A DNA stretch of 21,730 nt from Pseudomonadota bacterium (GTDB taxonomy: Bacteria; Myxococcota_A; Polyangia; JAAYKL01): positions 318,343 to 340,072 of the forward strand of contig JALNZK010000002.1 in NCBI GenBank assembly GCA_023229365.1, given 5' to 3'. Position numbers and translations under genes: made by a program. The notes below the pieces were generated by a model. That model searched no databases and was not told where the DNA came from. It saw only the letters and a list, made by a program, of their open reading frames with translations. How positions within the stretch are numbered: the first letter of the stretch is position 1; each line of letters starts with the position of its first letter. Shown in pieces: positions 3,957 to 19,240 of the stretch.

Positions 3957-4543
3957 CAATGCCACATTTAATGAATTGCCCACATTCACCTGATGGGTGG
4001 TGCCTTGATTGCGTCAGTAAACAAGGCAAGCTTTTGCTTGAAATTGACCAAGCCATACAAGACCCGGATAAATTTCTGGCGATGGTTGCTAATCGTGGCC
4101 GACCATTAATCGGCGTTTGCGTTTGCATTTGTCGTCGTGAACCATCCAGCGGCAAAGTTCTTTTGCACAAAAGAAAAGGAAAGCACGCTCCTGGCACATG
4201 GGCATTCCCTGGCGGGCATATGGAAAAATGGGAATCCTTTGAAGGAGTTGTTCGTAGAGAACTAGAAGAAGAAGCAGGGCCAGATATAGAAATTGATAAT
4301 TTGCAATTTTGGACTGTTGCCAATACTCGATTTCATGATGAAGACAAGCATTATGTTGTTCTTTTTATTATGGCTGATTGGGTATCTGGCGAGCCAAAGA
4401 TTATGGAGCCAGAAAAATGTGAATGCTGGGAATGGTTTGATTGGAATGATCTTCCTTCACCACTGATGATGGGGATACAAGATATTGTTGATCGTAAACT
4501 GAGCCCTTTTGACTATGGAGGCGAACACGAAACATTATGCTAG
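3953..4543 (+). CDS. Nudix hydrolase with a Cys-rich N-terminal extension
   Basis: Nudix box GGHMEKWESFEGVVRRELEEEAG (GX5EX7REUXEEXGU). N-terminal CPHSPDGWCLDC cluster. Confidence 0.9.
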   Translation: MTMPHLMNCPHSPDGWCLDCVSKQGKLLLEIDQAIQDPDKFLAMVANRGRPLIGVCVCICRREPSSGKVLLHKRKGKHAPGTWAFPGGHMEKWESFEGVVRRELEEEAGPDIEIDNLQFWTVANTRFHDEDKHYVVLFIMADWVSGEPKIMEPEKCECWEWFDWNDLPSPLMMGIQDIVDRKLSPFDYGGEHETLC

Positions 4544-5109
4544 AAGTAGAAGCTAAATTCATTGTGGATAGTTTTGATTTATTGGAAGCCAAATACCAAT
4601 TTGATGGCCCCGTGTTACAAAGAGATATATATTATCAGCATCCCTCTCGTGATTTTATGAAAACTGGAGAGTGGTTCCGTGTGCGAAGAATTTTTAAGGG
4701 CATTCCCTGTGCGGAAAACCTCGGGTGCGAAGAAATTCATCTGTGTCACAAAGGATCAAATCAAGGCTCATCTGATGTTAAAAGTCGCAGAGAGATAGAA
4801 TTTTCTGTGCCTATGGACATAATTGAACTTTTGCAAATCCTTGATTTTGCAGAATTGATACGAGTGGAAAAATACCGCCGATCAGCCGTGGTTACACCAA
4901 CTAACGATAGTGGCGAACCCACCTTTACCATAACATTAGATGAAGTTTTGGGATTGGGAAAATATGTAGAAATTGAAATGCTGGTTCTCAAAGAAGAATT
5001 TAAAGCAGGAGCAATTGAAGCCATTAATGACATAGCCAAAAAACTGGGACTCACCCAGCCAGAGAAACACGGATATGCTAAATTAATGCTGAAAAAAGAG
5101 AAAAAATGA
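4537..5109 (+). CDS. CYTH-domain protein (triphosphate tunnel metalloenzyme / CyaB-ThTPase family)
   Basis: N-terminal MLEVEAKF carries the ExExK signature. Length and basic/acidic strand pattern fit CYTH. Overlaps its neighbours by 7 nt and 4 nt. Confidence 0.8.
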   Translation: MLEVEAKFIVDSFDLLEAKYQFDGPVLQRDIYYQHPSRDFMKTGEWFRVRRIFKGIPCAENLGCEEIHLCHKGSNQGSSDVKSRREIEFSVPMDIIELLQILDFAELIRVEKYRRSAVVTPTNDSGEPTFTITLDEVLGLGKYVEIEMLVLKEEFKAGAIEAINDIAKKLGLTQPEKHGYAKLMLKKEKK

Positions 5110-6484: not shown

Positions 6485-7219
6485 TTAGCTATCGGTTTTG
6501 TGCAATGCATCGTATTCCGCCGATGTTGCTCGCAGAACGGCCCTGTTGTGAACTTCATCGGCATCACAAGAAGCAGAGGTTCTCGATTCGTAATCGGCAT
6601 AGGCTTTGCTTCCAGCCGCCGCAAAAGCCATAGCTTCCATCGTTCTTGCCGATTTGCCGCCTGTGAACTCATTCAACAGCATTAGTTTGGTATCGGCAGC
6701 TTGAGCCACATTAGCCCAGAATTTGCTTCCGCTATTCAGGCATTGCAACGGGAAAACACGGACACCCATTTCTTTGAGGGCAGCCAATTCTTGTCTCCAA
6801 TTCAGCTTGCCTTCATTCTGCGGATAATTAACATCGTGGGGATCAGCATCACCAATCATGACGAAAGCCGCCGCCACACCGGGGGTCCAACCCAAATCCC
6901 TGGCTTCGTGCAAAACCAATTCATAACATTCATCGCAATCGCCACCCGATGTGTCAGGTGCATTGCGAATAAAGTCGAAGATTTTTGCACGATCATTCGT
7001 GAGCTTTAGCACACGGATGCAGTTTTGTCCATCGCAATAATCCCCGTGAGAAATAAATGCCATTTTCAAGCCGGGAATATTTGCAAATAAACCCTCACAG
7101 GTTTCTTCCAGATGTTTGCGAACATCAGCGATACACGGTCGCATGGAACCTGTGGTGTCAAAACTTATGCCAATTTCCGTAGCGTCATCAATTCTTTCGC
7201 CAAGTGTTTGTTCCGCCAT
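6485..7219 (-). CDS. von Willebrand factor A (vWA) domain protein, last gene of the JAB-E1 cassette
   Basis: MIDAS-like DxTxS (ISFDTTGSM), later TSGG and MIGDADPHD. Start moved to the internal ATG at 7219 (MAEQTL...), which has an SD (aagaggaaaaaATG) and avoids overlap with the E1 gene ending at 7233. Confidence 0.8.
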   Translation of the reverse strand: MAEQTLGERIDDATEIGISFDTTGSMRPCIADVRKHLEETCEGLFANIPGLKMAFISHGDYCDGQNCIRVLKLTNDRAKIFDFIRNAPDTSGGDCDECYELVLHEARDLGWTPGVAAAFVMIGDADPHDVNYPQNEGKLNWRQELAALKEMGVRVFPLQCLNSGSKFWANVAQAADTKLMLLNEFTGGKSARTMEAMAFAAAGSKAYADYESRTSASCDADEVHNRAVLRATSAEYDALHKTDS

Positions 7220-7232
7220 TTTTTCCTCTTTT

Positions 7233-7877
7233 CTAGTGCATTGCACTAATGTGTAAGTCACGCAGGGTAATGGACCATGATTGATGCCGTGGCGATGATG
7301 CCAAGAAGAAATCAAGGATTTCCTCTGAGGCTGCCGCTACTGTCAACATGATGATGTTACGAGCCAAGGGATAGTCGCAAACGTCGCCACCGCTGTCCTT
7401 TGGCACCTTGTAGCGATCATCCCATACAACCTCGCCATAATCTTCAAATAATCCAGTGTGCAGACATGGAATCTTCTTTGCCCGGCAATGGGTTTGAACA
7501 ATTTGCCGTGCAGCATTATTATCAAAACAATCCAACACCAATGCTGAGCCACGCAGCATTTTATCCACGGTAGCGGCGGTCAATTCCTTGTCCACGGTGT
7601 CAATTTCAACACCAATGTTGCCAAACACCTTCTGTTTGGCGGCGGCAACTTTCAAAGCTCCAACATCCCGCTCATTCCAAAACTGGGTGTTTAGATTATG
7701 AGTATCGACACGATCTTTGTCAATACCACGGAGATTGGCAAATCCTTGTCGAGAAAGATTGTCAAGCAAATTGCTACCCAGGGCTCCTACACCACAAATG
7801 GTGATTAGACCTTGCAATTTCTTGGCATAATCCTTGCCTCGGTAAATTTCTTCATGATGGAATTTATTCGTTGCCAT
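7233..7877 (-). CDS. ThiF/MoeB/E1-like adenylyltransferase (short, 214 aa)
   Basis: Rossmann Gly loop ICGVGALGSNL. GIDKDRVDTHNLNTQ (compare the ThiF/E1 D.D.V..SNL.RQ pattern). LDCFDNNAARQ. Cys in GGDVCDYP. SD ggaggaagaaaATG. Confidence 0.88.
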   Translation of the reverse strand: MATNKFHHEEIYRGKDYAKKLQGLITICGVGALGSNLLDNLSRQGFANLRGIDKDRVDTHNLNTQFWNERDVGALKVAAAKQKVFGNIGVEIDTVDKELTAATVDKMLRGSALVLDCFDNNAARQIVQTHCRAKKIPCLHTGLFEDYGEVVWDDRYKVPKDSGGDVCDYPLARNIIMLTVAAASEEILDFFLASSPRHQSWSITLRDLHISAMH

Positions 7878-8097: not shown

Positions 8098-8661
8098 TCA
8101 CTTGGGTTTGTCTGTTTCAATTTCATTCGCCACCTCTTCGCTCTCTAGGAGAGCACCCAAATTAATTGCAGAGTCTTGATCCCAATCAATGGCATGCCCC
8201 CCAAGCTCAACCTCTTCATCAAATAATGTCAAGTCATCCTCCACAACGACATTAGGTGTTGCCAAGCCATAGCAAGCCAGTGGCTTTTTGGGTGTAATTC
8301 CTACAATTAGTTGCCCAAAGCTCTTTAGAGTACGAATGGGAATTGGAGGTTGTTCATCGCTGTAATACAAATAACCCTTGAGCCCATTGACTCCTTCGAT
8401 CAAACAAACGAGAGGCTTGCCAAACGACAACACCCACTGTGCCATTGTAGCATCATCCCGTGGGCTTGGGGAGGCGATCATTCCGGGGTGCGTGTGATAA
8501 AACCCAACCACATCCCCATATTTTTCTTCACGATCCATGACCCACTTATATGGAAAATCCACGGAGCCAGGGTGCCCTTCGCTTTCGTGCGAAACATGAC
8601 CCCACCACATTCTCCTGTGATTTCCGCCCGTCAAAATCCACGATTGTTCATTTTGTCTCAT
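8098..8661 (-). CDS. JAB/MPN (JAMM) metalloisopeptidase
   Basis: Complete JAMM motif HTHPGMIASPSPRD (HxHx7Sx2D) with upstream acidic residues. The ATG directly abuts the upstream stop (TAAATG). Confidence 0.9.
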   Translation of the reverse strand: MRQNEQSWILTGGNHRRMWWGHVSHESEGHPGSVDFPYKWVMDREEKYGDVVGFYHTHPGMIASPSPRDDATMAQWVLSFGKPLVCLIEGVNGLKGYLYYSDEQPPIPIRTLKSFGQLIVGITPKKPLACYGLATPNVVVEDDLTLFDEEVELGGHAIDWDQDSAINLGALLESEEVANEIETDKPK

Positions 8662-9177
8662 TTATTTTTCCCTTAGTCGTTTTATTGCTTCTTGACGTTG
8701 TTCTCGGGTTTGTTCTTCTAGTTCTTGAGTAAACAATTTCCCGCTCATGTAATATTCTGTACCCCAAGCTGGGCACATTTTGTGTAATTCAGGACGACCA
8801 CAACCAGGGCACACACAATCTTTTGACTCTTCTATGTCCCAGTCCATTGACTCTACAATTTCTTTCACATTCTCTTCGATAAATTTCTCACAAGCCTCTG
8901 GACCAATAGCTTCTCGCAATGCAGCAAACGGATTGCCTGTCGCTGCCCAGCGTGCCTCTTCTTCTTCCCAACACTCGTTTTGTCCACACTCTTTAACCTG
9001 ATCCCACAACAAAGCAACGGATGGGTGTTTGTCTTCTTCCCAATCACCACGTTCCAAAAATGCACAATAGCCGTCTTCTTGTTCAGCGTGGTCGGGGTGC
9101 TTGCTCCAATAAGGGCAAATGCCATTTGTATCATAGCAATATATTCCCTTCGGAATTAAACTCGGGTCTTTATTCAT
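8662..9177 (-). CDS. Cys/Trp/Glu-rich hypothetical protein (171 aa), probable metal-binding
   Basis: Start set at the ATG at 9177 (MNKDPS...), which forms an ATGA overlap with the GIY-YIG stop. Cys clusters: YCYDTNGICPYW...GYCAF and CVCPGCG...MCPAWG. Confidence 0.6.
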   Translation of the reverse strand: MNKDPSLIPKGIYCYDTNGICPYWSKHPDHAEQEDGYCAFLERGDWEEDKHPSVALLWDQVKECGQNECWEEEEARWAATGNPFAALREAIGPEACEKFIEENVKEIVESMDWDIEESKDCVCPGCGRPELHKMCPAWGTEYYMSGKLFTQELEEQTREQRQEAIKRLREK

Positions 9178-9893
9178 AATGTTTTCTTTTCCAACACTTT
9201 CCAATTTTTGTAATGTGCGATTTTGCCAGCAGCTACACTCCACATATGCCCAGAATTCAAATTGTGTTCCCTTGAAAACTGCTCCAAATTACTTGTCTCG
9301 AATACTTCTCCATCTGGCGATGCTATTTTGTATGCGAATTTCAATTTTTTGTTTCGCATTTTTTCTTTTGACTTATCCGAATACTTTCTTCCTGTGGCTG
9401 ATTTGGCAATTTTGTTTTTGTGTTCCTCTGTAAGCGTTTTGCCAGTGTTAAATAGCGATAACTTCTTTTTTGTTTTATTGCTTACTTTGTGTCCTAAATG
9501 ACTCGATCTAAGCTTTTTAATTGTTGCTTGGGTTACTTTTTTCCCTTTGTTGCCGATGGATATTTTGCGTTTAACCTCCTCAGATATTACGCCTCGGGCA
9601 TTTCCAAGTTTTAAATTATAACCATTTGGAGAAAGGGTTTTTAATTCACAGCCCCAATACACTTCCCTGGCATCTATTTCTTCTTGTGTGCCATTTAATT
9701 TTTCTAACACCACAATCTTAAAATGTTCTGGTCCGTATTTTCGAATGGCAAGGACAATCGGCATTAGTTTGGTGTTATTCCACCTTGCCTCCGCACAGTG
9801 TCTTTTGAACCTTTCTTCTGCCGTTTTCCAAGTTTGCCCAACATAGACCTTTGCATTAAGATCATTTATTATTTTGTATATAATTGCTTCCAT
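9174..9893 (-). CDS. GIY-YIG homing endonuclease (I-TevI/Seg-like) with NUMOD3-type repeats
   Basis: IIYKIINDLNAKVYVGQT (GIY...YIG), R/H/E core, NGYN. C-terminal repeated S.GNKGKK / SSHLGHKVS / NTGKTLTEEHKNKI DNA-binding motifs. Confidence 0.9.
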   Translation of the reverse strand: MEAIIYKIINDLNAKVYVGQTWKTAEERFKRHCAEARWNNTKLMPIVLAIRKYGPEHFKIVVLEKLNGTQEEIDAREVYWGCELKTLSPNGYNLKLGNARGVISEEVKRKISIGNKGKKVTQATIKKLRSSHLGHKVSNKTKKKLSLFNTGKTLTEEHKNKIAKSATGRKYSDKSKEKMRNKKLKFAYKIASPDGEVFETSNLEQFSREHNLNSGHMWSVAAGKIAHYKNWKVLEKKTL

Positions 9894-9945: not shown

Positions 9946-10401
9946 TTATAATTTGTCAAATTGGTCTCTGATCTTCATTAGAAGTTTTCCAAGATGGTTT
10001 TCCCCAACTCCGTTGCATACCCCAAAAAACGTGTCGTGCCACCAATTTCCTTCTACTAATTCCGCCTTGCCAGTGGCAAGAAGCTGATTGCATAATTGTG
10101 GATCGGAGAATTTTTGCACAAGCAAATCTTCCATAATCCCTAAATTAATATTTTGCCAATCGGGTCGTTGGTGTCCAGCTTTTTTGAATACAGCCGCAAG
10201 CTTCTTTGCTTTTCCAGGGGTAATAGCGTCTTGAATTTGCTTACGCAATGCCGGGTCTAAAAATTTAGCAGCTTGGTAAGCGTGTTCGGTGGAAATATAT
10301 TTTTCACCATCCAAAACTACCGGCGTGGACAGTATGGCAAAATTCGACAAATACCTGTATTCACCATCAAATGAATCAATTTTTGTTTGCTTGTCATTCA
10401 T
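9946..10401 (-). CDS. NADAR (YbiA/DUF1768) domain protein
   Basis: FDGEYRYLSNF, YISTEHAYQAAKF, GNWWHDTFFG and GENHLGKLLMKIR match the NADAR signature. Confidence 0.88.
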   Translation of the reverse strand: MNDKQTKIDSFDGEYRYLSNFAILSTPVVLDGEKYISTEHAYQAAKFLDPALRKQIQDAITPGKAKKLAAVFKKAGHQRPDWQNINLGIMEDLLVQKFSDPQLCNQLLATGKAELVEGNWWHDTFFGVCNGVGENHLGKLLMKIRDQFDKL

Positions 10402-10634
10402 TTTTTCTTTTCTTTCTTTTCAAGCTTTTTCAATGAATGTGCCAAATCCATTGAATTTGTTACTTTTCTCACTCCCTTTTTAAATTGTTTCAATTCTTCA
10501 CGCAACCGAATCACTTCTGCCTCCATGACCTGTGCTTTGCAACCATAGTCATACAAAACACCAGCGGTTGGCTCTGCCTTATTGACAGCATTCCAAAACT
10601 TGCGGGAGGCATTTCCAGAAAATATTTTTTTCAT
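10398..10634 (-). CDS. Hypothetical coiled-coil protein (~78 aa)
   Basis: Start placed at the ATG at 10634 (TAATG coupling to the upstream stop) rather than 10649. Lys-rich C-terminus. Confidence 0.5.
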   Translation of the reverse strand: MKKIFSGNASRKFWNAVNKAEPTAGVLYDYGCKAQVMEAEVIRLREELKQFKKGVRKVTNSMDLAHSLKKLEKKEKKK

Positions 10635-11122
10635 TACATTTCTGTCCACGATTTCAAAGGTGGTGCTACCAACATCTTTACAAACATCATGATTGTTCCG
10701 TAGACCACATCATCCTTGGTGAAATTAAATCTTTTCATTGCCTCATCATTCACCCATTCCATCAAGGAAGTGGCCCTTTCCTCGGAACGGGTCTTCCAAT
10801 CACACACCAACTCGGCAAGATAAATGCGGGGCATTCCTTTAATTCCGCCATCCCAATATTCTGGGTGGTGTTTATTCGTATGATTGTGCTGCATAATAGC
10901 GAGTTTCAAGGCAGCCTTATCTGGATTCTCTATTGATAAATGATCCCATTCAGCACCAAAAAACTTGCTATTATCGTGAAGAAAAGAATTTGCCACCAGC
11001 GTTTTGGCAAGCTTAAACTCTCCATTCTCCATCAGTCTTTCAGCAAGAATTACGCAATTCTCCTGAACACCGTGAATGTGCCGCATCAGTTTTTGAATAC
11101 GATCAATATCACGCTGACTCAT
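10634..11122 (-). CDS. HD-motif protein (putative metal-dependent phosphohydrolase-like; resembles phage DUF5662-type proteins from memory)
   Basis: H...HD pattern (HIHGV...FLHDNSKF), HNHTNKHHPEYW, AELVCDW. Start at 11122 preferred (ATGA coupling with the upstream 50-aa ORF); 11170 is the alternative. Confidence 0.5.
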   Translation of the reverse strand: MSQRDIDRIQKLMRHIHGVQENCVILAERLMENGEFKLAKTLVANSFLHDNSKFFGAEWDHLSIENPDKAALKLAIMQHNHTNKHHPEYWDGGIKGMPRIYLAELVCDWKTRSEERATSLMEWVNDEAMKRFNFTKDDVVYGTIMMFVKMLVAPPLKSWTEM

Positions 11123-11271
11123 TTCTTTTCTTGCTCCTTTTGCTTCTGTTCGATAATATAATTTCGACACCTTTCCAGTGCTTGATAATAAAGCAATTGG
11201 GAAAGTGGATCAACAGTATCTTGCAGACCTTTTGCACAAGCCAATTCGTGATTGTATTCTATTTCAGTCAT
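11119..11271 (-). CDS. Possible small ORF (50 aa)
   Basis: Manual translation: MTEIEYNHELACAKGLQDTVDPLSQLLYYQALERCRNYIIEQKQKEQEKK. It fills the gap between 11278 and 11122 with an ATGA overlap. Confidence 0.35.
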   Translation of the reverse strand: MTEIEYNHELACAKGLQDTVDPLSQLLYYQALERCRNYIIEQKQKEQEKK

Positions 11272-13122: not shown

Positions 13123-14691
13123 CTACGCAACTTTTCTCTTCGGCAAAGGCCAACTCATGATTTCCATGAGCAAGTCAAGCTTACTGGGCTTGCACAGGAA
13201 TTTCACCAGTCCAGGCAAGCTGTAGTAGTCGCCGGTAAATTGCCAAGCGTCTACTTCGATGCCTTTGACTCGACCTTCTTGCTCCAATTGATCCGTAGCA
13301 TTAGGAGTCTTGACAATGCAAATGTTGGGGAATGCATTCAAGGCTTGACAGTATTTTTGATAAATGTCAAAGAACTTGGGAGCAGTATTTTCCCCTTCAT
13401 CCGTTACCAAAATGATCTGTTCGACCATGTATTTCTTTTGTAGCATAAACTGCAAGCCAACGCCGCAGGAAGTCCAACCGCTTGCACGGATGCCTTCAAA
13501 TGCTTTCTCCCAAGCTGCCAAGTCTTTTCCTTGGCTAGTGATGGGATAGGCGATTGTATCTTGAGCATACGCATACAAAGGAACACCATCCTCCATAACC
13601 GTAGACAATAGGGAGCCAATTCGCTTGCCCAATTCAATGGTAGCGGCTTGAGAACCCGACTTGTCCACAAACAAAGCCGTGGGGCGACTGATACGACCCT
13701 TGGACTTAATTTGTTGGTCAGCAACGGCTTCCAATTGTTGCTTTACTTCATCCGAAACTCCAGGTGCCGCCTTGACGGCTTCCAAGGATTTCAATGCAGC
13801 CATTCGCTTATCGCCCTTGGCCACAACAAGTTTTTCCTCAATCAATTGCTTGAGATCGGGGTTGTCGAACACGCCACGCTTTTTCAAGCTGCCGATGCTG
13901 TTGACCAACTCTTGCGAAGTCATTACTTCCAACAAAGCCGCAATAACAGGCGGTGTCATGGATTCGATTACCGTACTGGCAATCCGGTACGGAATTTTAT
14001 TTTCCACGATCACTCGGGCTTGGTCAGTCGGTGAAGTTGCCTTGGCCAACTCCTTGATTAGGAACGCTTTGGAATCAGCAGGCGGCTTATCATCGAACAA
14101 CACGGCTTGAGCCCGGTCGGTCGGCTTGCGGTGTCCGAAAGCATACAAACTCTTCATATATTTTCGAGCACCAACGCAGACACTATCGAACCAATCTTTA
14201 TCCAATTCTCGCTCTTGCAGATAACGATTGATTTCCGTCATTACGGAATTGGGCAATTGTCGGAACAAGCCCGTTTTGACTTTCTTGGCAGGAGCAGCCG
14301 GTTGTGCCGGTGCGGCAGCAACTCTACGACCCCGAACCATGCGTGCGGGTGCCGGTGCGGCAGCCTTCGGCTTTCGTTCGGTGATATAGTTGCCCAAAAT
14401 GAACTTCAATACCCGTGTCAATTGATAGGGCGGAAGCTCACGCAACATGGCCAAACCAACTTCTCGGTGCCCGTCAAACTTGGACAGACACAAAGAAATA
14501 ATAAACATTTCTTTGTGGTCACGAATTTCGCCGGTATCATTATACCAAGCCGCCAATTGCGAATAGAACCGAGGATCATCGGTAATCATTCGCTGGTGTT
14601 CTGGATAAATAGCGGCCAGATCACGGTGAGGCGTGGTCAATAGAGTGTTGAGAATTCGGAGTCGCACATCTTGTTCGGTATTTTCGTTCAT
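13123..14691 (-). CDS. Ro60/Rsr-like protein: helical-repeat (TROVE-like) N-terminal region plus C-terminal vWA domain (522 aa)
   Basis: C-terminal vWA with MIDAS FVDKSGSQ (DxSxS), ASGWTSCG and ILVTDEGEN, in the same order as human Ro60 VDVSASM / GGTDCS / IVFTDNET (recalled). The N-terminal helical segments RDHKEMFIISLCLS and REVGLAMLRELPPYQLTRVLKFI parallel Ro60 KQEPMLFALAICSQ and [24 protein letters not shown]. Total length is close to Ro60 (~540 aa). Start moved to 14691 (MNENTEQ, SD aaagggatatgaaATG) because the ATG at 14727 lies inside a structured RNA element. Ala/Pro/Arg-rich insert KPKAAAPAPARMVRGRRVAAAPAQPAAPAKK. Confidence 0.65.
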   Translation of the reverse strand: MNENTEQDVRLRILNTLLTTPHRDLAAIYPEHQRMITDDPRFYSQLAAWYNDTGEIRDHKEMFIISLCLSKFDGHREVGLAMLRELPPYQLTRVLKFILGNYITERKPKAAAPAPARMVRGRRVAAAPAQPAAPAKKVKTGLFRQLPNSVMTEINRYLQERELDKDWFDSVCVGARKYMKSLYAFGHRKPTDRAQAVLFDDKPPADSKAFLIKELAKATSPTDQARVIVENKIPYRIASTVIESMTPPVIAALLEVMTSQELVNSIGSLKKRGVFDNPDLKQLIEEKLVVAKGDKRMAALKSLEAVKAAPGVSDEVKQQLEAVADQQIKSKGRISRPTALFVDKSGSQAATIELGKRIGSLLSTVMEDGVPLYAYAQDTIAYPITSQGKDLAAWEKAFEGIRASGWTSCGVGLQFMLQKKYMVEQIILVTDEGENTAPKFFDIYQKYCQALNAFPNICIVKTPNATDQLEQEGRVKGIEVDAWQFTGDYYSLPGLVKFLCKPSKLDLLMEIMSWPLPKRKVA

Positions 14692-14716
14692 TTCATATCC
14701 CTTTCTAAATAAAAAT

Positions 14717-14797
14717 AGCCCATCCAAGTCTGGTCAGCTTTGATTGGAAACGATATGGAAGTTTCTGTTTGTAAGCTGGGCCGGTATGGGATGGGCT
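14717..14797 (-). ncRNA. Y-RNA-like module 0 (minimal: conserved stem motif closed by a ~35-nt insert, no tRNA-like domain)
   Basis: 9-bp terminal stem agcccatcc/ggatgggct. Carries both conserved strands (minus sense 5' ..CCCAUACC..CAGCUUACAAACAG and 3' GCUGACCAGACUUGGAUGGG). Followed on the minus strand by AUUUUUAUUU. Confidence 0.55.
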
Positions 14798-14815
14798 TGT
14801 TCTGTTGTTTTGTTT

Positions 14816-15046
14816 TTAGCCGAAAACTGCCTCCGGTCGGAGTGTAAGGGTGTTAGTTTCACCATTACGATCAACAGCAAAAGCCCGTAGCTTCCCTTGA
14901 GGGATGCCTAGCCAATCGGCGGCAGCATTGCGGATATCGGCATCCGAGCTATTGTCGCCAATATTCAGTTCCGCCAAGGGAACGTCGTAAGACCTTCCTT
15001 CGACTCGAACGTGCAGCATGTTTTCAAGTTGGTTTTCGTTGTCCAT
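14816..15046 (-). CDS. Small beta-grasp/ubiquitin-like candidate (76 aa) ending in Gly
   Basis: Strong SD (aaggagaaattacgATG) and its own promoter. Ubiquitin size. Predicted strand-strand-helix-strand pattern (MLHVRVEGRSYDVPL / SDADIRNAAADWLGI / LTLRPEAVFG). The terminal residue is Gly, directly before the stop. Confidence 0.4.
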   Translation of the reverse strand: MDNENQLENMLHVRVEGRSYDVPLAELNIGDNSSDADIRNAAADWLGIPQGKLRAFAVDRNGETNTLTLRPEAVFG

Positions 15047-15089
15047 CGTAATTTCTCCTTATATCGTTCGTTCGTCTTTCACTTTCCCT

Positions 15090-15117
15090 ATTATACTTCA
15101 GAAATTTGAGTTGTAAA
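15090..15117 (-). promoter_or_regulatory. Sigma70-like promoter (TTTACA-N16-TATAAT) for the 76-aa ORF and Ro60-like gene
   Basis: Minus strand: tttaca(15117-15112)-16 nt-tataat(15095-15090), ~45 nt upstream of the ATG at 15046. Confidence 0.6.
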
Positions 15118-15127
15118 CAAGAAAAAA

Positions 15128-15253
15128 TCCGTCCAAGTTACAAAAACTGTTTTTGGTAAACAATGCAGGAATTGAACCAGCATTCTTCAGTTTTCAAGAC
15201 TGACGCTCAACCATTGAGCTAATTGTTTGTAAGTTTTAGTGGTATGGGACGGA
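15128..15253 (-). ncRNA. Y-RNA-like module 1: conserved stem motif flanking a complete tRNA
   Basis: Terminal stem tccgtcc(15128-15134)/ggacgga(15247-15253). The conserved 5' and 3' motif strands bracket the tRNA at 15154-15228. Confidence 0.6.
15154..15228 (-). tRNA. tRNA or tRNA-like, anticodon UGA, class I (short variable arm), CCA encoded
   Basis: Minus sense: AAACAAT-TA-GCTC-AATGGTT-GAGC-G-TCAGT-CTTGAAA-ACTGA-AGAAT-GCTGG-TTCAATT-CCTGC-ATTGTTT-A-CCA. U8, A14, G18G19, U33 and the T-loop TTCAA are present. One T-stem mismatch. A Ser-type anticodon without the long variable arm is anomalous. Confidence 0.55.
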
Positions 15254-15256
15254 AAG

Positions 15257-15385
15257 TGGAGGGTGTTGGATTCGAACCAACATTTTTTCGTTTTCAGTGA
15301 AAAAAGTTACCTTTTGTTTGTATGTCTCTCAGGTGTGGGACAATTGCTTGTCCAAGTTTGGGAAACTGAACGTTTTTAACCCTCC
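15257..15385 (-). ncRNA. tRNA-like RNA (anticodon loop CUGAAAA, GAA/Phe-type) with the conserved stem-loop inserted in the D-loop (module 2)
   Basis: 7-bp acceptor GGAGGGT/ACCCTCC. T arm GTTGG-TTCGAAT-CCAAC. Anticodon arm present. The D region is replaced by ...GTTCAGTT[motif hairpin, loop AGCAAUU]...AAGGTAAC. No CCA. Confidence 0.55.
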
Positions 15386-15395
15386 AAAGTATCAG

Positions 15396-15522
15396 CGGGG
15401 AAGATGGGATTCGAACCCATAATTTTTCCTTAACAGGGAAACTTTTACCAATTGTTTGTATGTCTCTCAGGTGTGGGATGGTCGCCCATCCAAGTTTGGG
15501 AAACTGAACTTCTAACTTCCCC
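15396..15522 (-). ncRNA. tRNA-like RNA (anticodon loop CUGUUAA, GUU/Asn-type) with the conserved stem-loop inserted in the D-loop (module 3)
   Basis: Perfect acceptor GGGGAAG/CTTCCCC. T arm ATGGG-TTCGAAT-CCCAT. Anticodon stem TTTCC/GGAAA. D region ...GTTCAGTT[hairpin closed by GGAUGGG-CGA-CCAUCC]...TTGGTAAAAG. Confidence 0.55.
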
Positions 15523-15612
15523 ATGTGCCCGGTTTATAATTCTCTGCCTGCAACCGGAAACCCGGCAGAAAAGCCTCCAGTTATTGGTTTATCCCAAGAG
15601 GCGAGTAATCAG

Positions 15613-15738
15613 ACCCGGTGGTAGGAGTCGCACCTACAATCTTTTCCTTAGGATGGAAACGCTGTTTGTACGTCTCTCAGGTTTGGGATAATTTCTTATC
15701 CGAGTTTGGGAAACTGTTTGCTGTTTAGCTTCACCGGG
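15613..15738 (-). ncRNA. tRNA-like RNA (anticodon loop AUCCUAA, CCU/Arg-type) with the conserved stem-loop inserted in the D region (module 4)
   Basis: Acceptor CCCGGTG/CACCGGG. Anticodon stem TTTCC/GGAAA. Non-canonical T-loop TGCGACT (G at position 55). 3-bp D-stem GCT/AGC enclosing the motif hairpin (loop GAAA). Confidence 0.5.
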
Positions 15739-15743
15739 ATATT

Positions 15744-15902
15744 CATAAGGCAAACATTTGATCGTCCAAGTCGAAGAAACTGTTTTTTGCAACAATGTTG
15801 GATTCGCACCAACTACCGAAACTTTATGGAAGTTTTGCTCTACTGATGAGCTAATTGTTTGTAAGTTCCGTCAGTATGGGACGATCAAATGTTTGCCTTA
15901 TG
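15744..15902 (-). ncRNA. Y-RNA-like module 5: 24-bp perfect terminal stem plus conserved motif flanking a degenerate tRNA-like domain (CAU loop)
   Basis: cataaggcaaacatttgatcgtcc(15744-15767) is the exact reverse complement of 15879-15902. The inner tRNA-like domain (15789-15860) has a D-loop ATCAGTA lacking GG, anticodon loop UCCAUAA (C33) and T-loop TGCGAAT. Confidence 0.6.
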
Positions 15903-15913
15903 TTGATTTTACC

Positions 15914-16090
15914 GACGCAAGCAAGTGTTGGCCCGTCCAAGTCGAAAAAGCTGTTTCACATAGTGACAGTTTAATAGACTGTTGCCTTTACCATTAGGCT
16001 AAAACACATTTTGGCGTGTTTGTTGGATTCGAACCAACAGATTGTTTGTAAGCTCTGTCTGTGTGGGACGAGCAAACACTTGCCTGCGTC
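15914..16090 (-). ncRNA. Y-RNA-like module 6 with a circularly permuted tRNA-like domain
   Basis: Long imperfect terminal stem 15914-15938/16066-16090. Minus-sense order: motif 5' strand, T arm (GTTGG-TTCGAAT-CCAAC, 16022-16038), loop-capped helix AAACAC/GTGTTT (16002-16021), D-like arm with GG (15984-15999), ACAGT-CTATTAA-ACTGT (15966-15982), motif 3' strand. Confidence 0.6.
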
Positions 16091-16092
16091 AA

Positions 16093-16260
16093 CATCATCA
16101 AGCTTCCGTCTGTCCAAGTTGAAGAAGCTGTTCAACTTTTGACAGTTCCAATTACTGGTGCCTGACCGTTAGGCTACATTCCTTGCGGAATGATGGGAGT
16201 CGAACCCACTTATTTGTTTGTAAGCTCCGTCTGTATGGGACAGACGGAAGCTTGATGATG
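16093..16260 (-). ncRNA. Y-RNA-like module 7 with a circularly permuted tRNA-like domain and a GNRA-capped acceptor-like helix
   Basis: 23-bp perfect terminal stem 16093-16115/16238-16260. T arm 16193-16209. CATTCC-GCAA-GGAATG hairpin 16177-16192. D-like GCCT-AACGGTC-AGGC 16160-16174. CAGT-AATTGGA-ACTG 16143-16157. Confidence 0.6.
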
Positions 16261-16295
16261 TTTACAACTCAAATTGTCAAAGAACACAAAATTGG

Positions 16296-16384
16296 CTATC
16301 CAAGTTCATAGAGGGGAGAACATTCAAATCTCCCCCTTCAAGCGGGGGAGAAAGTCGTTTGTAACCTCTATAGGTTTGGGATAG
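16296..16384 (-). ncRNA. Y-RNA-like module 8: conserved motif enclosing a GC-rich hairpin instead of a tRNA-like domain
   Basis: Terminal stem ctatcc/ggatag. Internal helix AUAGAGG/CCUCUAU. Insert hairpin TCTCCCCC-GCTTGAA-GGGGGAGA. Confidence 0.5.
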
Positions 16385-16475
16385 CAAGGGGAGCCGTTGG
16401 AGTCGAACCAACAAAACCACAAGCCCCGTCTTTCAACACTATACGCTGAATACCGTATTGCGGTTCATTCAGTAT
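16385..16475 (-). ncRNA. 5' leader of the RNA array: stem-loop plus a tRNA T-arm/minihelix-like element
   Basis: Minus sense from the predicted TSS: hairpin CTGAAT-GA-ACCG-CAATA-CGGT-ATTCAG (about 16447-16473). Then GGGG...GTTGG-TTCGACT-CCAAC(16396-16412)...CCCC. Confidence 0.4.
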
Positions 16476-16480
16476 GATCT

Positions 16481-16508
16481 ATTATACGCCTTTTTTATTC
16501 CCTGTCAA
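16481..16508 (-). promoter_or_regulatory. Consensus sigma70 promoter (TTGACA-N16-TATAAT) driving the RNA array
   Basis: Minus strand: ttgaca(16508-16503)-16 nt-tataat(16486-16481). It points into 16475..15128, where no protein-coding potential is apparent. Confidence 0.65.
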
Positions 16509-16542
16509 CACCAGTTTCTCAATTTTCAAAAAAATTTTTCGG

Positions 16543-16782
16543 TTATTCTTCCCGCATGGCTTTTAATGCCGCCTGGGAAATTTCAATTCCCCGAAAAAAT
16601 TCCTGCAAATGTTCGTCATTCTCGCCCAGGTTGAAGTCAGCCTCATGAAGAATTTCCCCATGAACAAAGGCGTTGTGTACGCCAGTCATAATGTACCGTG
16701 GATCGGCTTGTGCTTCAACTACAAGCATTCTAATGAAATGCTCGACTACTTCGTGGGTTTGTATTTGATCTGCTGTCATCAT
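16543..16782 (-). CDS. Hypothetical acidic protein (79 aa)
   Basis: SD ggaggaaaATGATG. Promoter immediately upstream. Protein-like helical sequence. Confidence 0.6.
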   Translation of the reverse strand: MMTADQIQTHEVVEHFIRMLVVEAQADPRYIMTGVHNAFVHGEILHEADFNLGENDEHLQEFFRGIEISQAALKAMREE

Positions 16783-16796
16783 TTTCCTCCACCGCC

Positions 16797-16824
16797 ATTA
16801 TACTTCAGCTTTCTGGTTTGTAAA
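16797..16824 (-). promoter_or_regulatory. Sigma70-like promoter (TTTACA-N16-TATAAT)
   Basis: Minus strand: tttaca(16824-16819)-16 nt-tataat(16802-16797). The predicted TSS falls at or next to the SD of the 79-aa ORF, giving a very short leader. Confidence 0.5.
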
Positions 16825-16891
16825 CCCCAAAATTACCCCACAAACTGGTGGTTTTTACTGAAACTGGCAGGGCAAAGGATAGATACTCAAT

Positions 16892-19240
16892 ATGGAAATT
16901 AAAGGTGCATTTAAGGCCGAAACGATTGTTGCTGGCAATATTAATTATTCAGCAGATACTGGGGCTGCCAACGCTTATGTTGTAAGCTTGGGTTTAAATT
17001 ATTTATTTATAGGGCTGCCGGTTTCTTTCAAAGCCTCTCATGATAATACAGGTGCGTCAACTTTAAAAGTTGATAGTCTGCCTGCTGTTGCTATTAAAAA
17101 AAATGTAAGTGATGCCCTGGATATGGGCGATATCAAAACAGGACAAGTCATCACTGTTATTTATGATGGAATATATTTTCAAATAGCAAGTGCCCTTGGC
17201 TCAGGTATTAGCGGATATTCTGGCTACTCTGGAATTGGTATTAGTGGGTATAGCGGATATTCAGGTGACTCAGGCATTAGTGGGTATAGCGGATATTCAG
17301 GTGACTCAGGCATTAGTGGGTATAGCGGATATTCAGGTGACTCAGGCATCAGTGGATACTCAGGATACTCAGGATCAGGCATCAGTGGATATTCAGGATA
17401 CTCAGGATCAGGCATCAGTGGATATTCAGGATACTCAGGATCAGGCATCAGTGGATACTCAGGATACTCTGGAACCACAAATATATATTTGGGAAATCCA
17501 ACGACTGGCGATTACCTAGATGGGTTATTTCCCTGGGAACCCAATGTAACTTTGATTGCTGATGCCGAACAAGAAGTAAATGAAGTATTAGCTGCATTAG
17601 CACCCGCACCAGCACCCAATTTTTCGACATATAACAATGCCCAAACAACAGGAGCAACAGGAAAACTAAGTTTTGATGGATCATATCCCATAGGCGGTGT
17701 ATCGAACGTAGATGGCATTGGCAATTGCACATCTGTCGCTGTCGATGGTGCATTTACTTATAATGCTTTAAGCGGCATGCGAAGAGGTGTTTTTAGTTCC
17801 ACAACAACAAGTTTTACAGGACAATTGGCATCTAATATTGTTGCAGAACCGAATGGAGCATATCTTCAATATGCTTTTATTGACGGTGACACAGGAATTC
17901 TAAGTATATATGTCAATAATGATGTAACACCAAAACATACTGTTGATTTATCAATATTTAGTTCTGGAAGCTCTCTGAATGGCAATGGCACCGGGTTTAC
18001 AAGTATATCAGCAGTAACCTATGAAAAATTTCCTAATGGCAGTGATTTTACATTATTTGTTTATAGGACAGCACAATGGGTGGTCAATACCGCTGATTGC
18101 AGAGAAGGTTGGAATTGGGTGCGTATTACCCATACCGTAGGAACAGATCGCCCGCCCACCAATCTTTATTGCGATTTTATTCGTGACCTAAATACTACGA
18201 CCACGACTTTTTCTGCGGACACGCTTACAGGATTTACTGGCAGTGGATCAAAATATTTGTCGGGAGTAAATTATTATACGGGTGGATCGGCAACTTATGC
18301 CGCAACAATCAGCAATCTTTACAGAAACACATGGTATACAGGATCAGATGCTATTGCTTACAGCTTTAACAGCACCCCTTTACAAGCATTGACAAATGAA
18401 TCTTTGGGCAATTCAGGAGGGGATGAAGCACTAGATGTAACTAAATCAAAAACAGTAAACATTACTTCATCCAGCACCAGACTAAATCCCACTGCTGGAC
18501 ATACCATTAGTGTTAGAACAACTGCAAAAAGGACTGTGCAATCTACTCAATCTTCATCCTATCGATCTATCACAGATATACTTCTTGATAATTTTGTTGC
18601 CTCATCTACCGTTACTGCTGAATATTTTGACGATGAGACTTATAGATTGCCATCAAATTCAGATTTTGACAACGACGCTACAGCCGTCACTAGTTCGTGG
18701 ACATCATCTAATACCATTGCTGATGCTGGTAGTGCTGGATACAACGATGGAACACAAACATATAATGGCACACTTGTGTATCCAACAATGAATTTCTCAA
18801 CCATAGCCAATGGTCCCGCTGGAAACGTTAACTACTCCACAGGTATATCTGGTGAACGTTGCTATTATAGATTTTTTGACATGTTAACCACAGCTAGGAG
18901 CAATTTTACACTTACGGTAAATGGAGCGTCAATAACACCAATATCAAATGGAACGGCTTTTTCTACAACAAGTCAAATAAAAATAGATATTAAGCTACCT
19001 AATGATGGTGGAGAAGGCACTGGTTGGCTAGATGTAACTGCATTGTTCGCAACAGCCCATTGGTCAGACGGTGACGGATGTTTGTTATCAGGAACATTTT
19101 CTATGAATTCTGCCATGTCAATAACTGTTGGCACAAAATCTACGGGAGCCGCAAGTGTTAATGGCAAGGTATTTTTAAGAATTAGAGTTCCTAGTGGATG
19201 GATTAGAAATTTGACTAGTATTACATTGGTTGGAGCATAA
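16892..19240 (+). CDS. Tail fibre protein with an internal (G-x-S/GYS) repeat stalk (782 aa)
   Basis: The N-terminal segment ADTGAANAYVVSL...FKASHDNTGASTLKVDSLPAVAIKK matches the widespread tail-fibre N-terminal pattern (NAY.v.l....F.a...NTGa.TLnv.gl.a..i). A 92-aa SGYSG repeat follows, then a long Ser/Thr/Asn-rich beta-type C-terminal region. Confidence 0.8.
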   Translation: MEIKGAFKAETIVAGNINYSADTGAANAYVVSLGLNYLFIGLPVSFKASHDNTGASTLKVDSLPAVAIKKNVSDALDMGDIKTGQVITVIYDGIYFQIASALGSGISGYSGYSGIGISGYSGYSGDSGISGYSGYSGDSGISGYSGYSGDSGISGYSGYSGSGISGYSGYSGSGISGYSGYSGSGISGYSGYSGTTNIYLGNPTTGDYLDGLFPWEPNVTLIADAEQEVNEVLAALAPAPAPNFSTYNNAQTTGATGKLSFDGSYPIGGVSNVDGIGNCTSVAVDGAFTYNALSGMRRGVFSSTTTSFTGQLASNIVAEPNGAYLQYAFIDGDTGILSIYVNNDVTPKHTVDLSIFSSGSSLNGNGTGFTSISAVTYEKFPNGSDFTLFVYRTAQWVVNTADCREGWNWVRITHTVGTDRPPTNLYCDFIRDLNTTTTTFSADTLTGFTGSGSKYLSGVNYYTGGSATYAATISNLYRNTWYTGSDAIAYSFNSTPLQALTNESLGNSGGDEALDVTKSKTVNITSSSTRLNPTAGHTISVRTTAKRTVQSTQSSSYRSITDILLDNFVASSTVTAEYFDDETYRLPSNSDFDNDATAVTSSWTSSNTIADAGSAGYNDGTQTYNGTLVYPTMNFSTIANGPAGNVNYSTGISGERCYYRFFDMLTTARSNFTLTVNGASITPISNGTAFSTTSQIKIDIKLPNDGGEGTGWLDVTALFATAHWSDGDGCLLSGTFSMNSAMSITVGTKSTGAASVNGKVFLRIRVPSGWIRNLTSITLVGA
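17198..17473 (+). repeat. Coding tandem repeat: 36-nt unit x3 (GISGYSGYSGDS) then 33-nt unit x3-4 (GISGYSGYSGS)
   Basis: Direct reading of 17198-17473. All three forward frames and the reverse frames stay open here, which produces spurious ORFs. Confidence 0.9.

Follow-up and report, generated by a model that had tools for sequence, protein, structure and literature searches.

Does a 522-aa protein that matches no family above threshold in Pfam, NCBIfam, or PADLOC scans form, together with nine repeated RNA modules encoded just upstream of its gene, a ribonucleoprotein (RNP) of the Ro60/Y-RNA type? The question is raised by the minus strand of a 21,730-nt stretch of DNA (the window), to which all feature coordinates below refer. 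Ro60/Y-RNA particles are conserved from bacteria to humans. We think it likely that this locus is a divergent system of that kind: the predicted Ro-like protein would dock on a stem common to all nine modules (the Ro-site), a single-stranded UACAAAC motif would supply an extra contact, and the products would be a set of RNPs differing in their tRNA-like face. We compared the window with 96 related loci (97 sequences in all, cited where necessary by L numbers), extracted 165 high-confidence modules from them, and aligned 38 homologues of the protein.

The 522-aa protein has the predicted fold of Ro60. An AlphaFold2 model built on the 38-homologue alignment (predicted local distance difference test score of 85.9) contains ~20 helices followed by an α/β domain, giving what the model depicts as a closed α-helical (HEAT-like) ring capped by a vWA domain. 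When the model was searched against the PDB with Foldseek, ranks 1–13 were taken up by all the solved Ro60, Rsr, and TROVE structures, including human and Xenopus Ro60, Deinococcus radiodurans Rsr, and the Ro60 of Thermus phage φLo. These alignments ran the full length of the protein (547–591 columns, TM 0.53–0.64, E 8.9e-12 to 5e-8); from rank 14 onward, the vWA domain was matched alone (TMq ~0.25). The MIDAS (a site of metal ion-dependent adhesion), D343-K-S345-G-S347, is intact, and D343, S345, S347, T407, and D431 are invariant across the 38 homologues, a DxSxS...T...D pattern that, judged by sequence, is of the Ro60 vWA type. At the level of sequence searches, phmmer found a marginal match in the PDB to φLo Ro60 (9l5y/9kop, a “TROVE domain-containing protein”; E 0.012), which improved to E 0.0011 over residues 197–434 when the 38-homologue profile was used. 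Pfam vWA_Ro60 matched 21 of the 38 homologues (best E 3.5e-7), with the individually inspected matches below cutoff. A first-pass annotation of this DNA had proposed both the Ro60 architecture and a vWA domain with a DxSxS MIDAS, and both proposals withstood these comparisons. The TROVE profile check suggested along with them did not: Pfam TROVE (PF05731) matched neither the window protein nor any of the 38 homologues. Because the Foldseek matches are full length and the MIDAS is present, yet TROVE does not match, we take the modeled protein to be a remote structural homologue of Ro60 that sequence annotation has overlooked. The model also contains a low-confidence insert in the ring (residues ~100–145; DNA ~14257–14394, minus strand) that is rich in Ala, Pro, Lys, and Arg (..KPKAAAPAPARMVRGRRVAAAPAQPAAPAKKVKTG..), has a short strand on either side, and might serve as an additional arm for RNA binding.

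The gene and the array upstream of it comprise the following features, listed in their order along the strand. The module types A to D refer to four layouts described below.

16481–16508, minus strand: promoter-like sequence P1, TTGACA-N16-TATAAT, 12/12 consensus positions
16386–16476, minus strand: leader, a hairpin plus a T-arm-like element at 16396–16412 (from sequence and RNAfold)
16295–16385, minus strand: M0, type D, a simple hairpin with GCUAUCC/GGAUAGC, CAAACC/AACUU, UAUAGAGG/CCUCUAUG, and UUACAAAC
16091–16262, minus strand: M1, type A, a 25-bp perfect lower stem and Ro-site, T arm, GCAA-capped acceptor hairpin, D arm, and extra arm
15914–16090, minus strand: M2, type A, a ~25-bp lower stem and Ro-site, T arm, acceptor hairpin AAACAC-GCCAAAAU-GUGUUU, D arm, and anticodon-like arm
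15744–15902, minus strand: M3, type B, a 24-bp perfect lower stem and Ro-site around a tRNA cloverleaf (15789–15860) with anticodon CAU
15614–15738, minus strand: C1, type C, acceptor CCCGGUG/CACCGGG with a GAAA-capped Ro-site hairpin at the D-arm position
15397–15522, minus strand: C2, type C, acceptor GGGGAAG/CUUCCCC with a GCGA-capped Ro-site hairpin at the D-arm position
15258–15385, minus strand: C3, type C, acceptor GGAGGGU/ACCCUCC (7/7 paired), anticodon-like arm, and T arm, with a GCAA-capped Ro-site hairpin at the D-arm position
15128–15253, minus strand: M8, type B, a Ro-site stem around a complete tRNA cloverleaf (15154–15228) with anticodon UGA, followed by the U-run GGACGGAUUUUUU
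15090–15117, minus strand: promoter-like sequence P2, TTTACA-N16-TATAAT, 11/12 consensus positions
14717–14797, minus strand: M9, type D, Ro-site stem AGCCCAUCC/GGAUGGGCU, CAUACC/GACUU, upper stem, UACAAAC, and a plain loop
13123–14691, minus strand: Ro60-like gene (ATG at 14691, stop at 13123), 522 aa, N-terminal helical-repeat ring and C-terminal vWA domain

All nine modules contain the same Ro-site core, consisting of a lower stem, a 6×5 internal loop, an upper stem of ~8–9 bp, and the single-stranded UACAAAC, which lies directly 3′ of the 5′ strand of the upper stem. The lower stem ends ..GUCC/GGAC.. in the window and ..GUAC/GURC.. in most bacteria. On the 5′ side, the internal loop has 6 nt (CAYACM; CCNACN in bacteria), and on the 3′ side, it has 5 nt (RACUY; RACUU in the window). 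RNAfold recovered the lower stem, internal loop, and upper stem in each module separately and again in the fold of the 1,357-nt putative transcript. The underlying DNA motifs are strongly enriched: TACAAAC occurs 13 times in the window against 3.4 expected and ACTTGGA occurs 11 times against 3.2, and in neither case did any of 100 shuffles contain as many. Nine of the TACAAAC sites (14767–16363) and eight of the ACTTGGA sites (14723–16305) are on the minus strand, and the ninth 3′-strand site is the variant ACTCGGA. The nine two-strand motifs, said in the first-pass annotation to pair into a stem, were thus confirmed in both number and fold, and its count of eight T arms was reproduced (leader, M1, M2, M3, C1, C2, C3, and M8). 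Its description of the motif needs one correction: in C1–C3, the 3′-type strand comes first, and the two are joined by GNRA loops (GGAUAA-GAAA-UUAUCC, GGAUGG-GCGA-CCAUCC, and GGACAA-GCAA-UUGUCC).

The structure of the Ro-site is conserved and covarying. For each UACAAAC-bearing strand in the window and the 96 related loci, the 3′ partner was picked among xACUxG sites. A stricter AACUYG partner rule missed many modules with RACUYG variants and was dropped in favor of this relaxed rule combined with cross-module controls. At least 13 of 15 base pairs were formed by 165 of 282 same-module strand pairs compared with 103 of 844 cross-module controls. Among 149 distinct spliced Ro-sites (window and 50 other loci), 87.4% of cells were paired compared with 68.3% in column-preserving shuffles, where preselection of the alignment for ≥12/15 pairs inflates the paired percentage but not its excess over shuffles of the same columns. 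Double changes were found in 487 cells against 130 expected, a number that none of 500 shuffles attained, and sliding the partner by one to three columns lowered pairing to 27–47%. At pair 16–31, for example, we counted UA in 56 sites, GC in 44, CG in 36, and AU in 7. Neither the excess over shuffles nor this composition is explained by the ≥12/15 selection. RNAalifold, given a MAFFT alignment of 44 type A modules from other loci and no structural input, predicted the lower and upper stems, a T arm of 5 bp, next to it a closed acceptor of 7 bp, and a D arm of 4 bp; 21 of the 29 pairs had compensatory changes.

A covariance model built from these 44 modules, R1, from which the window was excluded, matched the window on the minus strand only, between 14719 and 16385. 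It found M2 at 82.4 bits (E 2e-17, global alignment), M1 at 78.4, M8 at 50.1, M3 at 41.0, M9 at 38.8 (E 1.7e-7), and M0 at 33.5; its calibration was shortened, making the E-values rough. Two further matches span type C elements, and the next (11.7 and 10.5 bits; E 0.24 and 0.47) are isolated T arms inside the array, in C3 and the leader.

The Ro-site is tightly linked in the genome to the Ro-like protein family. In the window, all nine modules lie 26–1,700 nt upstream of the Ro-like gene on the same strand. Across the 96 loci, the density of TACAAAC is 1.30/kb on the coding strand in the 2 kb upstream of Ro-like genes, 0.52/kb just downstream, 0.06/kb elsewhere, and 0.03/kb on the other strand. 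Many related loci have a module immediately upstream of their Ro-like gene; in the window, this is M9, which stops 26 nt short of the Ro-like ATG and has the U-run AUUUUUAUUU after it.

What differs from module to module is the domain that the Ro-site carries. In type A (M1 and M2), a T arm, a 6-bp acceptor-like hairpin, UA plus a D arm, and an anticodon-like arm follow one another as in a circularly permuted tRNA, the order found in YrlA; the Rfam YrlA model matches M1 locally over the T arm, closed acceptor, and D arm (27.7 bits, model positions 31–81). In type B, the Ro-site surrounds a whole tRNA, recognized by both ARAGORN and the Rfam tRNA model (M8 at 69.9 bits and M3 at 46.3 bits). The acceptor 5′ strand of both nested tRNAs is AAACAAU, part of the conserved UACAAAC motif. 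Features of anticodon identity, such as the long variable arm of tRNA-Ser, are missing from both. The M8 tRNA has the anticodon UGA (“Ser”) yet measures 72 nt, has a short variable loop in place of the long arm, and encodes ACCA, and the M3 tRNA has the anticodon CAU with a 1:72 mismatch and no GGG/CCC anticodon stem. Nested tRNAs that start 1–4 nt inside UACAAAC recur in L001, L003, L004, L007, L010, and L056 with assorted anticodons (Arg, Lys, Thr, Asn, Gly, Leu, Trp, and Ile), the Leu examples lacking long arms.

In type C, the Ro-site hairpin is embedded in a cloverleaf at the position of the D arm and therefore replaces it. Each of these cloverleaves has an anticodon-like arm, and its T arm abuts the 3′ strand of a perfect 7-bp acceptor; for C3, the unconstrained minimum free energy structure from RNAfold is exactly this cloverleaf; C2 gives a partial Rfam tRNA match of 26.6 bits with the D arm missing. 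Acceptors of type C are 7/7 paired in 12 of 15 elements with unrelated sequences (window, L001, L003, L004, L007, L016, and L054), whereas ~0.05 per element would be expected by chance. Type D (M0 and M9) is the Ro-site hairpin with no tRNA part. A canonical cloverleaf reaches threshold in two of the nine modules, the others scoring 16.9–27 bits (threshold 29) or being permuted; across the window, these two tRNAs were all that Rfam reported at its gathering threshold.

The same repertoire was seen among the 165 modules: 57 have T before D (the YrlA-like order, dominant in bacterial loci), 43 have a T arm only, 28 have short loops, 16 are permuted (type C), 13 have a D arm placed ahead of the T arm or alone (for the most part nested whole tRNAs), and 8 carry long non-tRNA inserts. 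In some bacterial modules (L019 ~4306–4450, L035 ~6761–6873, and L056 ~4492–4646), a long insert starting GACGGUCCUAAGGUAGC stands in place of the tRNA mimic. We provisionally take this sequence to be a conserved 23S rRNA segment, possibly an rRNA-fragment mimic; Rfam gave no match on L056 4440–4700.

Several details of individual modules were also recorded. The loop of the M2 acceptor hairpin, GCCAAAAU (15990–16020, minus strand), reads as a discriminator plus CCA rejoined to the 5′ end, and in M8 (15153–15156, minus strand) and several type B relatives, the acceptor stem is followed by an encoded A/G-CCA. Because of these sequences, some modules may derive from, or be processed into, CCA-ended tRNA-like RNAs. 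For C1, an earlier pairing made by eye for the fourth module, UUAUCCCAA with UUGGGAUAA (15692–15684 with 15597–15589), is probably alternative or vestigial; a GNRA hairpin with a 7-bp acceptor fits better and recurs elsewhere. This 9-bp alternative competes with the GAAA-capped hairpin of C1. A 90-nt spacer (15613–15523, minus strand) with its own hairpin, CUGCC...GGCAG, belongs to no module, and together with the alternative pairing, it may represent a decayed tenth module or a structural switch.

The array is probably divided between two transcripts. Along the minus strand, P1 (16508–16481) is followed by ~1.35 kb without a credible open reading frame (ORF), P2 (15117–15090), a 76-aa ORF, an 81-nt structured element, and the 522-aa ORF. 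The consensus TTGACA-N16-TATAAT promoter described at the head of the array is present at all 12 positions. Of the 1.8 kb that was thought to lack coding potential, the ~1.35 kb stands, but 14816–15046 is a conserved 76-aa gene with its own promoter. Moreover, the single transcription unit assumed in the first-pass annotation is better replaced by two, split near 15120: P1 probably drives eight modules and ends at a stem plus U-run near 15120, and P2 probably drives the 76-aa gene, M9, and the Ro-like gene. The U-run GGACGGAUUUUUU after M8 is the likely end of the P1 transcript, and near-consensus promoters and U-runs stand at the places expected of them. A third near-consensus promoter lies at 16824–16797 (minus strand), upstream of a 79-aa ORF (16782–16543). 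All three have a 16-nt spacer, and two share an extended −10 context, CTGAAGTATAAT, and the −35 element TTTACA; this shared sequence suggests one phage promoter class.

The analysis shows the predicted Ro60 fold, the conserved and covarying RNA structure, its tight genomic linkage to this protein family, and co-variation of the RNA with that family; Ro-site binding, processing of the precursor, and a tethering or mimicry function are our inference. In the mechanism we propose, P1 would drive a ~1.35-kb structured precursor with eight tightly packed modules, and the ninth (M9) would be carried in the leader of the Ro-like gene. The Ro-site would be the most likely docking site of the 522-aa ring protein, and the variable domain of each module (usually a tRNA mimic, in the form of a permuted tRNA, a nested whole cloverleaf, a cloverleaf with the Ro-site hairpin for a D arm, or none) would set what the RNP is tethered to or mistaken for. 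Further steps are proposed with more reserve. RNase III might release the RNAs at the 24–25-bp perfect stems of M1–M3, and in types B and C, the acceptor/T-arm minihelices might be processed by RNase P, RNase Z, and the CCA-adding enzyme. Host factors that bind tRNA might be recruited by the tRNA-like faces or mistake them for substrates, and M9, lying in the leader of the Ro mRNA, could allow autoregulation or attenuation.

The system is common to bacteria and several huge phages and is not phage-specific. Clustered at 50% identity, the protein family comprises 1,496 clusters at E ≤ 1e-3 (539 at E ≤ 1e-30), so that Ro60-like proteins are more widespread than TROVE-based annotation implies. 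More than 569 matches were found in GTDB species genomes, mostly of Planctomycetota with some Chloroflexota and others, and isolates that encode a Ro60-like protein include Zavarzinella formosa DSM 19928 and Gemmata sp. IIL30. In hundreds of bacteria, the system is chromosomal and lies outside prophage contexts. Relatives are carried by 15 IMG/VR loci, on contigs of up to 572 kb, and among GenBank phage records by one only, the unannotated 595-kb LR756511.1. The window itself fits a part of a jumbo-phage-sized element because its 228-kb source contig encodes homing endonucleases, NUDIX, CYTH, and NADAR proteins, and a 2,069-aa protein. This contig also encodes a LAGLIDADG endonuclease, at the far end of locus L100, which reaches slightly past the window.

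Modules were present in most of the related loci examined. By a strict count, which undercounts divergent bacterial loci, the window has 8 modules and its phage relative L001 has 11, compared with 0–7 (median 1) in bacterial loci. With strict counts of up to 7 in bacteria and 11 in L001, multi-module arrays characterize the family as a whole, and the window ranks among the larger ones. The large expansion claimed for this locus is therefore real in that the array sits at the high end, but it is not unique, arrays being normal for the family, bacteria included. The enlargement of the system's RNA arm in jumbo phages hints at a function during infection.

The Ro-like gene and its modules are accompanied by a conserved set of further genes, which in the window are as follows.

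14816–15046, minus strand: ubiquitin-like protein (Ubl) gene, 76 aa, β-grasp, with an AAGGAG ribosome-binding site and its own promoter P2
11278–12285, minus strand: X335, 335 aa, of a 305–335-aa family with an invariant Cys277; among 68 loci with enough flank, tblastn located it downstream of the Ro-like gene in 51
8098–8661, minus strand: Prok-JAB peptidase (Pfam E 2.2e-8; 31 of the 68 loci; PADLOC JAB models)
7233–7877, minus strand: short ThiF-family E1-like adenylating enzyme (Pfam E 5.3e-27; 43 of the 68 loci; PADLOC CBASS-type E1-E2 models)

The Ubl ends in an invariant ...RPEAVFG, with 0–1 extra residue in most close homologues, and Ubl homologues lie upstream of the Ro-like gene in 58 of the 97 sequences. 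The β-grasp fold, the C-terminal glycine, and the co-encoded E1-like and JAB proteins together identify a ubiquitin-like system. X335 had no Pfam or PDB match, either as a single sequence or as a profile; a TtuA-like PP-loop thiolase was considered for it and is unsupported, there being no Pfam match and no visible PP-loop motif. The operon order Ubl/modules/Ro-like/X335/JAB/ThiF is alike in jumbo phages and bacterial chromosomal loci (window, L097, L098, L099, and L021). In the window, the operon is split between X335 and JAB by genes for a GIY-YIG/HNH homing endonuclease (9174–9893), a NADAR protein (9946–10401), and a DUF5662 protein (10634–11170), all on the minus strand; the bacterial counterpart is compact. 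At several related loci, canonical tRNA gene arrays lie directly upstream of the Ubl/module/Ro-like unit on the same strand (L073 1–4900, L082, L003 600–3530, L032, L034, L045, and L055), the largest being that of L073 with ~33 genes.

Because of the conserved synteny with Ubl, ThiF, and JAB, the Ro-like RNP seems to be linked with a module for activating and deconjugating a ubiquitin-like protein. We put forward only tentatively, and with some doubt, the wider picture of a cellular and viral system in which a Ro60-like ring with modular, multi-layout tRNA-mimic RNAs works with a dedicated Ubl, E1, and JAB. Rea1-MIDAS binds UBL domains, and by analogy, the Ubl is a possible ligand of the Ro-type MIDAS site. 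The Ubl might also be transferred onto targets brought by the RNA modules, or Ubl, E1, and JAB might perform sulfur-carrier chemistry on the tRNA-like RNAs. If true, the coupling would link RNA mimicry or surveillance to protein (or RNA) tagging in bacteria. In the literature open to search, we found no description of Ro60/TROVE joined with Ubl, ThiF, JAB, or Planctomycetes; an Asgard-virus preprint lists Ro60 and ThiF genes separately and does not link them.

Several observations weigh against a Ro60/Y-RNA-type system. Beyond the missing TROVE match and the preselection of the spliced alignment noted above, NCBIfam RNA-bind_Rsr (NF041674; cutoff 900 bits) gave one homologue a score of 13 bits. 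On the RNA side, the Rfam YrlA model (RF02553) has a threshold of 69 bits, which the window (27.7 bits) and the Gemmata locus L065 (37.5 and 35.8 bits) fall short of, as did everything in ten related loci; the GNCGAA motif is absent from all nine 5′ strands (minus strand); and metazoan Y_RNA (RF00019) gave no match at E ≤ 10 in 14500–16900. The promoter scan as a whole was at chance (3 found, 3.7 expected) and is suggestive in site quality and placement only. Finally, X335 or the Ubl, as other conserved proteins of the operon, could read the Ro-site or UACAAAC in place of the Ro-like protein. An ordinary phage tRNA cluster, its stems serving as processing signals and the vWA protein being unrelated or a tRNA-maturation factor, would be in keeping with the two tRNAs called by ARAGORN and Rfam (69.9 and 46.3 bits), the eight T arms, the real tRNA arrays that adjoin L073 and L003, and the CCA encoded by several nested tRNAs. 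We nevertheless consider it very unlikely: of the nine modules, two are cloverleaves, two are permuted with closed acceptors, three are without a D arm, and two are without any tRNA part; the acceptor strand of the nested tRNAs is dictated by UACAAAC; their anticodons are assorted, with Ser and Leu lacking the long variable arm; and in bacteria without nearby tRNA arrays, a covarying stem accompanies the Ro-like gene. That the repeats act as DNA (protein-binding or recombination sites or REP-like elements) is barely credible. They are closely spaced and contain inverted repeats, but the compensatory changes are strand specific and include G-U pairs, the strand bias is 1.30 vs. 0.03/kb, and T-loop and D-loop sequence signatures are present.

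The two remaining alternatives accept the RNAs and differ over their purpose. The tRNA-like domains might mainly be decoys or spare parts against host tRNA nucleases (anticodon nucleases or those of PARIS or VapC type), with the Ro-like protein stabilizing or protecting them. Speaking for this are the varied anticodon loops that the nested tRNAs of phage relatives display (Arg, Lys, Thr, Asn, Gly, Leu, Trp, Met, Ser, and Ile), as do the expanded phage arrays (strict count of 8 in the window and 11 in L001 vs. a bacterial median of 1 and maximum of 7) and the other conflict-type genes in the window (NADAR, NUDIX, and CYTH). We still rate it as quite improbable, given that hundreds of bacteria carry this system on the chromosome, away from prophages, that many modules have no anticodon arm, and that no nuclease target was found. 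The modules might instead be substrates or scaffolds of the Ubl/E1/JAB/X335 machinery: in Ubl-dependent sulfur transfer, as in TtuB/TtuC/TtuA or Urm1/Uba4; with a Ubl-modified Ro-like protein as the output; or with X335 or a partner reading the stem. E1-activated Ubl sulfur carriers thiolate tRNA, and this explanation draws on the conserved operon order in chromosomes and phages, on a β-grasp protein with an invariant C-terminal Gly beside clearly identified ThiF and JAB, and on the T arm in nearly all modules. Set against it are the lack of a PP-loop thiolase or recognizable E2, an X335 that matches no family, a single C-terminal Gly rather than the GG typical of sulfur carriers, and type D modules that keep the Ro-site without a tRNA part. 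A Ro-like RNA binder would still be needed, and both explanations can coexist; on its own, we find this one rather unlikely. We thus retain the Ro60/Y-RNA-type RNP as the probable reading of the locus, with the provision that, GNCGAA being absent and the Rfam thresholds unreached, Ro-site binding by analogy is plausible but not guaranteed.

How the system relates to known Ro60 RNPs can be judged best from YrlA. Chen et al. (2014) described 355 YrlAs beside TROVE-annotated genes in 254 bacteria and 22 phages (276 genomes; ~1.4 each) and defined their V, T, AS, and D arms together with a GNCGAA(N)G motif on the Ro-binding 5′ strand (PMC4201824). As in the Rsr/YrlA/YrlB systems of Salmonella, Mycobacterium smegmatis, and mycobacteriophages, a ring plus vWA protein is encoded here within a few kilobases of small RNAs on the same strand; all nine modules obey the encoding rule of YrlA (<4 kb from the Ro60 orthologue, same strand). 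The order of a stem with internal loop, T arm, closed acceptor-like stem, and D arm is shared with YrlA (in the window, by M1 and M2 only), as is a 3′ strand with AACUUG (Rfam YrlA consensus ..AaAcUuGucGccg), and hairpin-only RNAs are present as in YrlB. In contrast, the 5′-strand loop CCNACN and the single-stranded UACAAAC are specific to the present family, there are up to 9–11 modules per locus compared with ~1.4, and the layouts with a nested tRNA or with the Ro-site in the D arm have not been described for YrlA. The partners also differ, being Ubl, E1, and JAB where YrlA systems have RtcB and RtcA. Of the likeness to the Ro-binding helix of Y RNAs drawn in the first-pass annotation, the 3′-strand ACUUG, which also occurs in the YrlA consensus, survives, and the rest does not; its description of the modules as Y-RNA-like and tRNA-linked is upheld by the local YrlA match of M1 and by the R1 matches but not by RF02553, GNCGAA, or Y_RNA. 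We therefore file the module RNAs as a sister family of YrlA that covaries with a divergent Ro60 clade, not as members of YrlA: they share its arrangement, stem logic, permuted tRNA, and AACUUG, fail the RF02553 threshold and GNCGAA, and add UACAAAC and layouts B and C.

Other systems resemble this one in part. In D. radiodurans, Yrn2, tRNA-Asp, and Yrn1 are made as one precursor, and in RYPER, a complex that includes PNPase, a Y RNA forms the tether between Ro60 and an effector (PMC4201824). The window likewise has Y-type RNAs and tRNA in a putative polycistronic precursor upstream of the rsr-like gene, although no link to PNPase is evident, the Ro-binding sequence is different, and the array is far larger. 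The Ro60 of Thermus phage φLo binds two adjacent Y-like RNAs and the host PNPase (PMC12135203). It is also phage-encoded with Y-like RNAs adjacent upstream, and it is the best sequence-level PDB match (9l5y and 9kop); however, its two RNAs have CGAA and no tRNA chimeras, and identity in the structural alignment is ~14%. With metazoan Ro60 and Y RNA, the system shares a bulged conserved stem for Ro and a variable effector loop, and the modeled fold matches 1yvp and 9nen, but it is bacterial and phage-borne, polycistronic, and fused to tRNA mimics. CBASS Cap2/Cap3, Bil, and TtuB/TtuC likewise combine a small β-grasp protein with a C-terminal Gly, an E1-like enzyme, and JAB in one operon; here, no recognizable E2, CD-NTase, or thiolase is present, and the set is linked to a Ro60-like protein and structured RNAs. 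Across 165 modules, one putative docking stem is kept, and the mimic domain is swapped among at least four designs, while the fixed Ubl/E1/JAB partnership points to a biochemical output. The family, which has culturable carriers in Zavarzinella formosa and Gemmata, is thus a natural experiment on two questions: which partners are recruited by the tRNA-like domain of a bacterial Y RNA, and which ligand occupies the Ro60 MIDAS.

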